Source: an uncultured Porphyromonadaceae bacterium | Lineage (GTDB): Bacteria > Bacteroidota > Bacteroidia > Bacteroidales > Muribaculaceae | Assembly (NCBI GenBank): GCA_947427285.1 | Contig: CANEHE010000005.1 | Coordinates: 26,156 to 90,155, forward strand | DNA length: 64,000 nt | Reading direction: 5' to 3' | Shown: positions 1,880-48,554 of the stretch, piece by piece | Numbering within the stretch: position 1 is the stretch's first letter | Layout of the letters: each line of letters starts with the position of its first letter | Notes under the pieces: model-generated | Told to the model about the DNA's origin: nothing | Databases searched by the model: none | Seen by the model: the letters and a program-made list of their open reading frames with translations, nothing else | Made by a program: the position numbers and the translations under genes

Positions 1880-1964
1880 TGGTGCGCACGAAGGGACTCG
1901 AACCCCCACGTCGTAAGACACCAGATCCTAAGTCTGGCGCGGCTACCAATTACGCCACGTGCGC
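1880..1964 (-). tRNA. tRNA-Leu(TAG)
   Basis: Reverse complement GCGCACG...CCAGA-CTTAGGA-TCTGG...GGTTCGAGTCC...CGTGCGCACCA: full cloverleaf, long variable arm, encoded CCA. Confidence 0.97.
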
Positions 1965-15643: not shown

Positions 15644-16243
15644 TCACGGGATTCCGAGAAAACGGTGAAGTTGAACCGAAAGTGTCCAGCGTGGATCGGC
15701 AAGCACGCGTCTGATGGTGCGCATGCGGTTGGCACGGCATACTTCCTCATCAGCCACATAACATGGCTGCAGATACATGAATGTGTCAGTGAGACGACAT
15801 GGGAGGGAGAAATATGGCTCCAGATCCTGACCGAGATCCACAACCTTGATCTCATCGGCTCTTTCCGCACGCAAAGGGAGCGCAGCGACTCCGTCGATTC
15901 CTAACTTGGGACTCACTGTCACCCAGTCGGCAGCCTCCGGCACCGGGAAAGTGCCATTGGTCTCTATCGCCACTTTCTTTCCTGTGGCGCGGCGAAGCAT
16001 CCGGACAAACTCATTGTCAATATGCATGCATGGCTCTCCCCCGGTCAATACGATCCAGCCGGCCGTATAAAGATTGACAGCCCTGATGATGTCATCATCA
16101 CTCATGAATATCCCCTCCTCATGACTGGTGTCGCAAAACGGACATGTAAGGTTGCAACCTGAGAAACGCACGAATACAGACGGAAAACCTGTATGATGCC
16201 CCTCTCCCTGAAGAGAATAGAAAATCTCGTTGACTTTACGCAT
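15644..16243 (-). CDS. queE: 7-carboxy-7-deazaguanine synthase (radical SAM)
   Basis: EIFYSLQGEG, CNLTCPFCDT, TGGEP, VTVSPK motifs. Confidence 0.93.
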   Translation of the reverse strand: MRKVNEIFYSLQGEGHHTGFPSVFVRFSGCNLTCPFCDTSHEEGIFMSDDDIIRAVNLYTAGWIVLTGGEPCMHIDNEFVRMLRRATGKKVAIETNGTFPVPEAADWVTVSPKLGIDGVAALPLRAERADEIKVVDLGQDLEPYFSLPCRLTDTFMYLQPCYVADEEVCRANRMRTIRRVLADPRWTLSVQLHRFLGIP

Positions 16244-16255
16244 TTCGGTAGAATG

Positions 16256-16591
16256 TCAGTCGTCAAGTTCGTAAACAGCTGAATTGCCCTCACTTTCCTG
16301 CACCTCACAGCGAAAGCAGTTAGGTACTGTCTCCACCACCCATCGGGCGATGTTCTCTGCGGTAGGGTTAAACGGCAACACATCATTCAGCAGCACGTGG
16401 TCAAGACGGGCCGCCACCTGATCCTTTATAAGGGAGAAATCAGTAACCATCCCGTCGGCATTCAATTCTTTTGCCTTGCATTCGACGGTAAGGATCCAGT
16501 TATGCCCGTGAACCGCCGAACATTTACTCGGATAAGAAAGGTCAAGCCGATGGGCAGCCGATATTTCAAGTCGTTTCTTTACGTAATACAT
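16256..16591 (-). CDS. queD: 6-carboxy-5,6,7,8-tetrahydropterin synthase
   Basis: AAHRL, C..VHGHNW, LDHVLLND, PTAENIA motifs. Confidence 0.93.
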   Translation of the reverse strand: MYYVKKRLEISAAHRLDLSYPSKCSAVHGHNWILTVECKAKELNADGMVTDFSLIKDQVAARLDHVLLNDVLPFNPTAENIARWVVETVPNCFRCEVQESEGNSAVYELDD

Positions 16592-16602
16592 CCTGTTTTC
16601 CT

Positions 16603-17262
16603 CTACAATACCTCATACTCAGTGGGATCTGACAAGCCAGCCTCCCGGAAAGCCTCCTGACGCTCACGGCATGTGCCGCAACGTCCGCAATGACGCTCAC
16701 CCCCCTTATAACAACTATATGTGTCGGAGTAGTCTACTCCCAGAGCCGCACCACGTCGTGCGATCTCAGTCTTTGTAAGATCTGTATAGGGAGCGACTAT
16801 ATCAATACCATTGTATGTTCCGGCCTTCATGGCAGCCGACATAGACGAGATGAATGCGCTCCGGCAATCCGGATATATGGCATGATCCCCTCCATGGTTG
16901 GCTATCATCACATGTTTTAATCCCTCCGACTCCGCAAGTCCGCAGGCCACGGAAAGCATGATGCCATTACGGAATGGGACCACTGTCGATCTCATATTCT
17001 CATCATCGTAGTTACCCTCGGGAATCTCCTTCGCCCCGGAGAGCAACGAACTCTTGAAATAACGGCCCATGAACTCAAGAGGAATCACTATATGGGTAAT
17101 CCCGAGTCGGGCACACTGCCGGGCCGCACAGTCAATTTCTCTGGCATTATGGTTTGATCCATAATCGAAACTGACAGCCAGAGCGATCTGTCCGCTGTAT
17201 TCGTGAAGCATGGTGACGGAATCCATTCCGCCGGAAAGGACAATTACAGAGTCTTTACTCAT
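16603..17262 (-). CDS. queC: 7-cyano-7-deazaguanine synthase
   Basis: SGGMDS, TVVPFRNGIML, YPDCR, TYSCY, HCGRCGTC motifs; start at MSKDS. Confidence 0.95.
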   Translation of the reverse strand: MSKDSVIVLSGGMDSVTMLHEYSGQIALAVSFDYGSNHNAREIDCAARQCARLGITHIVIPLEFMGRYFKSSLLSGAKEIPEGNYDDENMRSTVVPFRNGIMLSVACGLAESEGLKHVMIANHGGDHAIYPDCRSAFISSMSAAMKAGTYNGIDIVAPYTDLTKTEIARRGAALGVDYSDTYSCYKGGERHCGRCGTCRERQEAFREAGLSDPTEYEVL

Positions 17263-17302
17263 CTTGACAATTTTTTCAGGTGAAACGTTCAGGTATCTGC
17301 AA

Positions 17303-17785
17303 TCAACGGCGTATAAACGCGTCTGTGTTGAAATTTTGCGCCAAACGCATACGGCGCAACTCCTCATGATCGGCATCCGCCCGGTTTGCAAAAGGATATA
17401 TGCTTATTCCTCCCCGTGGCATGAAAATTCCACGCACTTCAAGATAACAGGGATCCATTAATTCCCAGAGATCATTGAGAATGATATTGACGCAGTCTTC
17501 GTGGAAATCGCCATGATTGCGGAATGAGAACAGATACAGTTTCAGACTCTTGCTCTCGACCATACGGAGGCGCGGTATATAGGAGATGAAAATGTGGCCG
17601 AAATCCGGCTGTCCCGTCTTGGGACACAGAGTGGTAAACTCCGGACAGTCAAACGTCACCACATATTCGCGGCCCACATGCCGGTTGTCAAATATCTCCA
17701 GCAGAGCCGGAGAATAGTCAGAGGGATACTCTACGCCCTGGCAGCCGAGCAACGTCAGGCGTTCAAGTGATTCATCAGATCGCAT
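17303..17785 (-). CDS. queF: NADPH-dependent preQ0 reductase (type I)
   Basis: [34 protein letters not shown] motifs. Confidence 0.95.
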
Positions 17786-17933
17786 AATAACAAAAATCTT
17801 TTAAAGCCGGAGAAGTCCTGAAAAACAGATCCTTAATCCGGAAATACGACAAAACACGCGCCGAGCTGCCACCATCGTCGCGTAACTGCGGAAACATCTG
17901 TCATGGGGGTTCCGCGTTTTCCCTGCAAAATTA
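17786..17933 (-). promoter_or_regulatory. que operon promoter (TAATTTTG 17926-33) and ~135-nt structured leader
   Basis: -7 box plus mutually exclusive stems seen by eye. Confidence 0.5.
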
Positions 17934-18213
17934 ACCAAAATTTCTATTTCCTCAAAATCATCCACCCCGGAGAATAAAACCAAAAACAAAAGAAATTGCA
18001 TTTAGACAGATCCAATCAACGAACAGGCAAAGGGACTTTATCTCATCGGAAGTGAAGCCTTTGGCGATAAGCTTGAAAGCATAGCAGAGTTGCTTGTCAG
18101 AAATCTCGTGTCAGCCCTGCGGCACGGCGAGGTCGATATGTAAAACAGACGATACCATACCGCGAAAGTATGATATCGTCCGCTATGACGAAAAGACGAA
18201 GACGATGTTTCAG

Positions 18214-18576
18214 TTATCTGTAATAATTACAGACCCCATCATAAATTTTATTTACAATATGACCTACAACCGCGCGAGAAACCCAACGAGGAATAGCGGT
18301 GTAACCTTGAATAACAGCGGTTATTCCTTCGGTTAGACCTGCTTTTGCAACAGTTTTAACGACACTATCTCCGCAGAGAATGTCATACATGCTGTCTGAT
18401 TTAACCACTTTGATTTGGACACTCTGTTGGGTGTTGTCATTCTCTATGACCGTCACGTTCCCATAAGTAGCAAGGTATACACCCTCAGCTACTTTAGTTC
18501 TTTGTTGGGCAGATGCGGTTTCTGTGCAACATACGATTGCAATAATTGCAATCATAAGACTAATGAGTTTTTTCAT
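18214..18576 (-). CDS. Small secreted hypothetical protein
   Basis: Sec signal MKKLISLMIAIIAIVCCTETASA; mature part ~97 aa with two Cys and an amphipathic C-terminal helix. Confidence 0.7.
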   Translation of the reverse strand: MKKLISLMIAIIAIVCCTETASAQQRTKVAEGVYLATYGNVTVIENDNTQQSVQIKVVKSDSMYDILCGDSVVKTVAKAGLTEGITAVIQGYTAIPRWVSRAVVGHIVNKIYDGVCNYYR

Positions 18577-18629
18577 ACACATTGTGTGTTTTGGGTGGTC
18601 TTACAGTCCTGTCGACCGATTTCATGAAT

Positions 18630-18799
18630 AAGAAACGTGGACTGGATTGCCACACCTCCGAATGATGGTCCTGAGAAAACCTTAAGTGCGAGATATGAAA
18701 ACAGCAGCCCACGCTATAGCGTGAGAATCGTCTTGTTACCTCTTGCACTTATCGAAAATTTCTCAGGTTTTCATTCGCAAGATAAGCAAAACGCTTCTT
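18630..18799 (-). ncRNA. Rod-like ~170-nt structured leader/ncRNA candidate
   Basis: Four nested inverted-repeat pairs around perfect palindrome CACGCTATAGCGTG (18710-23); TAAATTTG promoter box at 18836-43. Confidence 0.5.
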
Positions 18800-47857: not shown

Positions 47858-47932
47858 TCCTATCCCAGAAACATATCTCCTTTTTTGGCCAGACAAAATA
47901 ATTTGTCTAACTTTGCCGTGGAATAGAAATGA

Positions 47933-48179
47933 CCGGGCGCGTGAGCCATCAAGACGTAAAGACGGACAAACGCTCACAGGGAACGGGGTGGGAATCCCCG
48001 ACAGACGCGCTGCTGTATTTTTCCGTTCCGACAAGATTTCTCAACGAAATCATGATCGGTAGAATCTATGTCTACCATAAGCCACTGGCAATGGTGTGCC
48101 TTAACGAAATCGTATGCACACCTTTACTGTCGGGAAGGCCGGACATAGAAAGGAAATAAGTCAGAAGACCTGCACCCGG
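47933..48179 (+). promoter_or_regulatory. Cobalamin (AdoCbl) riboswitch
   Basis: AGGGAA-cggggtggGAATCCCCG-ACAG..CGC.GCTGT, GCCACTG, GGGAAGG, AAGTCAGAAGACCTGC; P1 ccgggcgc/gcacccgg; TAACTTTG box at 47908-15. Confidence 0.92.
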
Positions 48180-48554
48180 ATAATATCTTTCAGACGAAGC
48201 TTCGCGAAATAAGCTTGAAAGGAGTAAATCAAAAAGCACCGCAGATATTCCAATCTGTATGTGAATGCCATAAAATTGACATCCGATCCGGTGCTTATTC
48301 CCCCTTCCATATTTATTTTGTCAGATGCTTCATAAAACCGGATCAATACATACCGATTTATGAAACATAATTTTTTACACATATATGAACGGCAGATCTT
48401 CTGCCATTAGATTCTTTCAATCATAGCCGAAACCTTAGACAGGAGCACATCATCCGACAAACATCACAGATGATGACATGAATCCGAATGAGAAACACAT
48501 TTTCTAAAAGAAAACACATCACAGTAAATAGAATATAGATTGATTTTGATTGAG

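Follow-up and report, generated by a model that had tools for sequence, protein, structure and literature searches.

The queF leader and its operon

The leader under study lies on the minus strand of the window, by which we mean the whole stretch of 64,000 nucleotides that was analysed. The original prediction had described the genes behind it as a que operon, and Pfam bears this out by assigning them to queF, queC, queD and queE, with relA/spoT coming next after queE according to the open reading frames and Pfam. This order, queF-queC-queD-queE, is unchanged in all the loci that carry the motif described below. The same prediction placed a sequence box at the head of the leader, and reading of the sequence confirmed a Bacteroidetes-type -7 box at 17933-17926. 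The features of the locus are as follows:

15644..17785, minus strand: queF-queC-queD-queE operon (preQ1 synthesis), from Pfam hits
17785-17303, minus strand: queF, from the ORF list and a Pfam QueF match (E = 4e-31)
17783-17785, minus strand: queF start codon, inside the connecting loop L3 of the predicted knot
Between queF and queD, minus strand: queC, Pfam QueC match
16591-16256, minus strand: queD (PTPS-family protein), Pfam PTPS match
16243-15644, minus strand: queE (radical SAM), Pfam Radical_SAM match
17786-17933, minus strand: leader ahead of queF-queC-queD-queE, about 135 nt counted from the box
17926..17933, minus strand: promoter box TAATTTTG (TAnnTTTG), read from the sequence

Scanning of positions 17700-18250 against Rfam, a check that had been proposed together with the original prediction, gave no preQ1 or other relevant match at E<=10, with nothing at this level in the leader, and relaxed thresholds applied to the window's leader and 17 related loci returned only noise in the queF leaders. 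In the whole genome, the preQ1-I model (RF00522) reached at best 13 bits against a cut-off of 39 and the preQ1-II model (RF01054) 16 bits against 47, while preQ1-III (RF02680) produced nothing at E<=10; across 151 genomes of the genus, preQ1-I was matched in 0 at E<=0.01. The earlier view that the leader resembles none of classes I, II and III is therefore shared by the Rfam and covariance-model scans. The sole matches at gathering score within the window were a cobalamin riboswitch (47920-48191, plus strand, 58.7 bits) and a tRNA (1883-1964, minus strand).

A class I preQ1-like sequence was seen divergent from queF in a motif-bearing species (L045:1205-1249, minus strand): its P1 is CGUGG/CCACG, the 5' strand is followed by UU and the 3' strand preceded by UC, and the tail is A-rich. 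At 25 bits it stays under the cut-off of 39; a 20-nt tandem repeat comes after it, and Pfam gave no match for the open reading frame downstream.

A covarying hairpin around an invariant 14-mer

To start with, we collected the queF upstream regions of 23 species of the genus. These leaders are very heterogeneous, and 3 of them, including that of the window, share the 14-mer GAUGGUGGCAGCUC, whose flanks are complementary to each other within each leader yet differ in sequence among the three. An alignment of 10 sequences built around this core had 81% of paired cells and a covariation of 0.60, compared to 0.17 after shuffling (reached by 0 of 500 shuffles), and extension to 24 sequences gave 83% of paired cells versus 58% shuffled, with a covariation of 0.57 versus 0.17 that again none of 500 shuffles attained. 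The covariation signal was lost once the 3' partner was displaced by one to three columns. Of the 24 genome-derived copies of the 14-mer, 23 are identical, as are 8 metagenome copies (about 32 in total), the sole variant being a U13 to G change in L088; unlike the 14-mer, its flanks and the synonymous sites of the gene are saturated. Within the 14-mer, G1-C14 and A2-U13 close the stem, which we call P1, and leave a 10-nt loop, UGGUGGCAGC. The copy of P1 in the window contains one A-G mismatch. This hairpin is real and non-random, and the original prediction had touched it in part:

17883-17856, minus strand: conserved hairpin, with the originally proposed AUGGUGG in its loop
17877..17883, minus strand: P1 5' strand ACGCGAC, from stem covariation
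17863..17876, minus strand: invariant 14-mer GAUGGUGGCAGCUC, from identity across copies
17856..17862, minus strand: P1 3' strand GGCGCGU, from stem covariation
17888..17915, minus strand: originally predicted hairpin GCGGAA...UUCCGC, lineage-specific and outside the conserved core

The check for conservation and covariation in orthologous leaders thus revealed a covarying hairpin other than the helices first drawn, which were not conserved. GCGGAA (17915-17910) and UUCCGC (17893-17888) are present as described, but the helix is not kept in orthologous leaders: a 5' hairpin at 17888..17915 is limited to the small clade of the window, where its sequence differs in each member (in L002, L036 and L166, which are close relatives, a small hairpin of unrelated sequence stands there), and most other copies, which form clade B, have no hairpin at that position. 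The loop CCCCCAU (17909-17903) and AUGGUGG (17875-17869), proposed to form a pseudoknot, also exist in the window, but their pairing, which includes an internal U-C mismatch, is unconserved, CCACC being found in 0 and CCAUC in 2 of the 22 other core-sharing leaders when 80 nt upstream were searched. A competing helix between AAAACGCG (17920-17913) and CGCG(UG)UUUU (17860-17851) can be drawn if a 2-nt bulge is allowed, and a weak CCGGA/UCCGG hairpin with a later U5 is there as well; neither the alternative helix nor the U-tract hairpin was seen in the other leaders read. A scan for intrinsic terminators gave 0 sites in 17500-18700, and the other leaders read showed no conserved hairpin followed by a U-tract. 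Folded as a single sequence, the 143-nt leader reached -32.6 kcal/mol. Of 200 shuffled sequences, which averaged -36.6, 172 folded as well or better (z = +0.99 for the leader). Judged by these comparisons, the first-drawn P1, CCCCAU knot, competing helix and terminator-like hairpin either belong to particular lineages or do not rise above chance.

The element is confined to part of one genus

We built a covariance model from the hairpin alignment and ran it on the 151 genomes of the genus. The model matched 21 of them, once per genome, and in 19 cases the match has a TAnnTTTG box on one side and the AUG of queF on the other; the remaining two, which are the weakest, are coding sequence without queF nearby. 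In 150 further genomes from 35 other genera of the family it gave three weak matches, all false, with queF absent from their vicinity. Among 80 more queF loci of Muribaculaceae and Bacteroidales, the element occurred in 3, one of them with the U13 to G change, and 80 metagenome loci provided 8 further exact copies of the 14-mer. All the exact 14-mer matches that were fetched as loci lie upstream of queF. A pattern search that tolerated one mismatch was swamped by noise from coding sequences, for example signal peptides reading MVAAL, and was abandoned.

In each of the 23 copies examined in the genus, the hairpin is preceded by a TAnnTTTG box, at a distance of 14-74 nt from the invariant 14-mer, and in about 9 of the 23 leaders the expected transcription start and the beginning of P1 are no more than a few nucleotides apart. 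The element is restricted to part of one mouse-gut genus of the Muribaculaceae; the original prediction was right in linking a conserved RNA element to the preQ1 operon, but this element is not a feature of Bacteroidales as a whole. No description of the element was found in Rfam 15 or in the literature searched, and it is apparently undescribed as well as narrowly distributed.

Other queF leaders of related organisms carry different structures. Seven related species (L014:1945-2018, minus strand; L016; L018:1423-1500, plus strand; L020; L095; L098; L099; alignment A4) share a second, unrelated leader type, for which Rfam gave no match. Right after the promoter box, it has a hairpin of 6-9 bp, with two covarying stem pairs and a 7-nt loop, CUGU[A/U/C]U[U/C], followed by a CUUCCGG...CCGGAU hairpin and by a conserved AAUCACCUUUGAUGAUCA before the AUG. 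Positions 2-4 of the 7-nt loop read U-G-U, as in the anticodon loops of Q-family tRNAs, where U-G-U is the recognition element of tRNA-guanine transglycosylase, and this hairpin may mimic the tRNA substrate of that enzyme. Four human-gut metagenome contigs (L226, L230, L231 and L240) encode the Cys15 discussed below without having the 14-mer, and this group shows another 5' hairpin, GUCGGC and GCCGAC around the 10-nt loop GCCGGCUGAU, about 60-85 nt upstream of queF. Its loop segment CCGGCUG has a complement at +175 of the group's own coding sequence (QPD codons), which we discarded: in this group, 7-mer matches between untranslated region and coding sequence are about as frequent as chance predicts, and all the copies available were near-identical. 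Finally, weak matches to BTnc231, a Bacteroides sRNA family, lie near queF in L088:1178-1318, L005:2178-2253 and L057:2361-2515 (30-35 bits against a cut-off of 80, E = 0.002-0.03) and may represent a repeated element.

The loop has a conserved complement inside queF

We searched for complements of the 14-mer in the leaders and in the first 200 nt of the coding sequences. The only recurrent one was GCUGCCA at +41 to +47 of queF; a point against it is that a 7-mer complement of the 10-nt loop is expected by chance within 200 nt of coding sequence in about 5% of cases. The strands of the corresponding helix, P2, and the leader part of the segment connecting them are:

17865..17871, minus strand: P2 5' strand, loop U6-C12, UGGCAGC; no other part of the 14-mer has a conserved complement in the leader or the first 200 nt of queF
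17739-17745, minus strand (queF +41 to +47): P2 3' strand GCUGCCA, codons Gly14-Cys15-Gln16
17786..17855, minus strand: leader part of the connecting L3, A/U-rich, no conserved sequence, includes the CCGGA/UCCGG hairpin

GCUGCCA is exact in 21 of 23 carriers of the hairpin and reads GCUGUCA in the other 2, while it was found in 0 of 21 non-carriers of the genus; the single substitution in the site, C to U, preserves the pairing as a G-U wobble. Carriers encode LLGCQG, with Cys15, and non-carriers of the genus LLGNQG, with Asn15 (21/21). In all 23 carriers of the genus set, and in all carriers of two further collections, Gly-Cys-Gln is written GGC UGY CAR. Cys15 also occurs in a separate metagenome lineage that lacks the hairpin, where the codons are GGA UGC CAA and offer no match to the loop.

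The nucleotide constraint on this site was examined in 24 carrier genes, whose invariant amino acids provide 24 fourfold-degenerate sites. Only one of these is itself invariant, the third base of Gly14 (C in 24/24 carriers); the remaining 23 all vary, with the commonest base at 0.29-0.79. In non-carriers, the Gly14 codon is GGC in 11, GGA in 7, GGG in 2 and GGT in 1, and in carriers the third bases of Leu13, Gln16 and Gly17, which adjoin the predicted helix and lie outside it, vary freely. By this comparison of carrier genes, selection acts at the RNA level on the complementary coding site. The 7-bp P2 duplex has a calculated energy of -11.8 kcal/mol, in the minimum free energy fold of the window's leader plus 90 nt of coding sequence all 7 positions of the site are paired with the loop, and the G at 17746, just before GCUGCCA, is able to pair with U13. 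We infer from these data that the loop and the coding site would actually pair.

Compensatory changes in P2 were sought in 80 genome and 80 metagenome loci, which gave an invariant loop and one U13 to G variant; no compensatory double change appears because both strands are invariant. Hairpin and site co-occur in 44 of 44 cases, but these represent only 1-2 independent contrasts on the queF tree, so a test of the association between hairpin and Cys15 is powerless.

In the queF gene tree, motif-bearing genes form two clades with motif-less genes between them, and the 14-mer and the Cys15 codon are identical across both. The AU test rejected monophyly of the carriers with p = 0.006, for a short gene and with a test defined after the tree had been seen. 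This suggests that the leader and the 5' end of the coding sequence may have moved, by recombination or transfer, or been lost, as one module.

A long-range pseudoknot is the favoured reading

Taken with a probability of about 0.6, our preferred reading is that the element forms a long-range H-type pseudoknot, with the start codon inside it, and thereby controls queFCDE translation or mRNA stability. A pseudoknot, as originally proposed, would thus be the most likely architecture, but with its partner in the coding region of queF and not in the leader. The queFCDE mRNA would begin with P1, which in many species would occupy the extreme 5' end of the transcript, and the UGGCAGC of its loop would pair with GCUGCCA at queF codons 14-16 to form P2. 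The L1 linker would consist of UGG, 3 nt that should suffice to cross the deep groove of a 7-bp P2, and P2 would abut the 3' strand of P1 with 0 nt between them, making coaxial stacking possible. The AUG and an A/U-rich region for ribosome loading would then lie in an L3 of 54-109 nt. Closure of the knot would alter the access of 30S subunits or RNases to the start region and, in this way, would determine how much the preQ1 pathway as a whole produces.

In Bacteroidetes, what tunes initiation is mRNA structure together with upstream A residues, and not a Shine-Dalgarno sequence (PMC6847099). Because initiation in Bacteroidia proceeds without Shine-Dalgarno pairing and depends on local mRNA structure, closure of the knot should affect access to the start region. 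The total length of L3 is 54-109 nt in the 23 copies, and the 16 nt that open it contain about 36% A and 35% U; in this stretch after P1 we found no conserved tail or position and no complement of the loop. Seven invariant nucleotides of the 14-mer (G1, A2, U3, G4, G5, U13 and C14) are dispensable for P2, which suggests that the P1-P2 junction may be recognised by something, be it a protein or a small molecule (preQ1 or preQ0, for example). That the pairing would regulate expression in a given direction is a further step which we infer from this arrangement. Several points weigh against the pseudoknot: the site at +41 falls beyond the 30S footprint, so it is not evident how repression would come about; no expression platform, be it a terminator or a helix sequestering the start codon, is conserved; and Cys15 was possibly selected for a protein-level reason.

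By analogy, the element would be closest in its working to operator pseudoknots in the mRNAs of ribosomal proteins. In rpsO of E. coli, a 7-nt stretch of the coding sequence (+4 to +10) is the partner for the loop of a hairpin in the 5' untranslated region, and the bound knot traps the initiation complex (PMC3985624). A 7-nt pairing between loop and early coding sequence, with AUG and ribosome-binding region in the connecting loop, is common to rpsO (S15), to the related alpha-operon S4 operator and, as predicted, to the queF element; we accordingly place its putative fold within the rpsO-type architecture. The knot would also be the regulated conformer in both. The two differ in that the partner lies at +41 to +47 here and at +4 to +10 in rpsO, that there is no Shine-Dalgarno sequence here, that the genes are metabolic and not ribosomal, that the sequences share no similarity and that a protein effector is known for rpsO but not here.

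Alternative readings of the element

The next reading in order of strength holds that the element is a fourth class of preQ1/preQ0 riboswitch, in which the metabolite would bind the P1-P2 junction, stabilise the knot and stop queFCDE translation. It is a special case of the pseudoknot reading with the effector named, and we regard it as possible but rather unlikely. The candidate ligand pocket would comprise the invariant G-C and A-U pairs and the UGG linker at the junction, and the seven invariant nucleotides that P2 pairing leaves unexplained would find a role there. Its only association is with the operon for preQ1 biosynthesis, and the genus lacks the known preQ1 classes as far as scanned (class I in 151 genomes, all three in the genome of the window), which leaves a regulatory niche open. 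It would share with class I the H-type topology, and the invariant UC just before the variable 3' strand of P1 recalls class I type I (PMC11625349). Against this, the UC is Watson-Crick complementary to the opposite invariant GA and is probably paired, the L2 and conserved A-rich L3 of a class-I-like pocket are missing, the partner of the aptamer would be 54-109 nt away, and the distribution is very narrow.

A closer comparison with the known classes is in line with this balance. Like preQ1-I (RF00522), the element would serve genes for queuosine precursors with a small hairpin whose loop pairs downstream into an H-type pseudoknot, here a predicted one, and it has UC immediately ahead of the 3' strand of P1, as type I does (PMC11625349). 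P2, however, would have 7 bp here versus 3-4 bp in class I, its partner would be in the coding region at 54-109 nt and not in an adjacent A-rich tail, and the element has neither an L2 nor a conserved A-rich L3. Class II is an HLout pseudoknot with helices P1-P4 that buries the Shine-Dalgarno sequence, whereas the core here is a single hairpin. Class III offers the likeness of a structured-domain loop docking onto a distant downstream segment of the mRNA and governing translation of a Q-related gene (PMC11625349), but it does so with an HLout aptamer of about 100 nt and five helices that docks onto a Shine-Dalgarno sequence, in place of one hairpin and a site in the coding sequence. By covariance model and by defining features, the element does not belong to any of the three preQ1 classes, and any responsiveness to preQ1 or Q is at this stage conjecture.

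Less probable is the view that the hairpin alone is functional, as a stabiliser of the 5' terminus or as a site for a protein (a pathway enzyme or a dedicated repressor), with the match at codons 14-16 being incidental or a by-product of an Asn-to-Cys change selected in the protein. Its placement near the expected transcription start in about 9 of 23 leaders agrees with this, as do the invariance of the entire 14-mer beyond its pairing part and the fact that co-occurrence with Cys15 amounts to 1-2 independent events. It leaves three facts unexplained, however: of the fourfold sites only the Gly14 third base is invariant, the one change observed within the pairing site preserves a wobble pair, and the hairpin-less Cys15 lineage uses GGA.

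We consider improbable, to a clearly greater degree, that the element senses Q through ribosome traffic. In such a mechanism P2 would repress initiation and, when tRNAs lack Q, ribosomes pausing at Tyr20, Asp23 and Tyr24 would shield +41 to +47 and hold the knot open, with more queF translation as the result. The geometry fits, as a ribosome with codon 19 in its P site covers the mRNA from about nt +43. Moreover, Q-decoded codons at positions 20-24 (17714-17728) end in U in 80% of cases in carriers versus 60% elsewhere in the same genes, the non-carrier figures being 50% (codons 20-24) and 54% (rest). This codon bias is nevertheless modest and uncorrected for shared ancestry, the effect of Q on NAU decoding differs in sign between organisms, the YP.DY codons are conserved in non-carriers too, and the invariant junction nucleotides would stay unexplained. 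A broader proposal unites this mechanism and the riboswitch: the element would be a new, fourth type of architecture that senses queuosine-pathway status, by a preQ1/preQ0 knot or by pausing at Q codons, that builds P2 with the coding sequence of the enzyme itself and, by this requirement, forced the Asn-to-Cys change in QueF. We put it forward tentatively, with the odds well against it.

It is very doubtful that the AUG within the 14-mer starts a regulatory peptide (MVAA...). The run AUG GUG GCA GCU is invariant and the frame stays open for 5-24 codons, or enters queF in 7 of 23 leaders, but beyond the four residues neither peptide, length nor frame is conserved (frame 0 relative to queF in 11/23), the invariance of third codon positions points to selection on RNA and not on peptide, and the A of the AUG is paired inside P1. 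The architecture first drawn, in which a P1 of GCGGAA/UUCCGC and a CCCCAU:AUGGUGG knot are followed by a competing AAAACGCG/CGCGUGUUUU helix and a weak terminator, is barely credible and already contradicted by the comparative data, as its four pairings can all be drawn in the window's own sequence but none is conserved in the other leaders sharing the 14-mer, its fold is at chance level versus shuffled sequence and the terminator scan was empty.

Two further candidates were tried and rejected. A T-box or other tRNA-binding leader had no Rfam match, and 0 of 34 predicted tRNAs of the genome contain a complement of at least 7 nt to the 14-mer. A sigma-54 promoter reading of TGGCAGC was set aside as, by eye, no conserved -12 element follows.

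Meaning for queuosine-precursor control in Muribaculaceae

The known preQ1 classes were not found in this abundant gut lineage, and the element is a concrete candidate for the control of queuosine precursors in Muribaculaceae, with a compact core of about 30 nt plus a 7-nt site. If the pseudoknot reading holds, the element would add a case of an mRNA regulatory helix built with coding sequence, and the data suggest that this helix would constrain a synonymous site and be tied to an amino-acid replacement in the very enzyme that it regulates. It would also offer a natural system in which to study how translation is gated in Bacteroidia without Shine-Dalgarno pairing.
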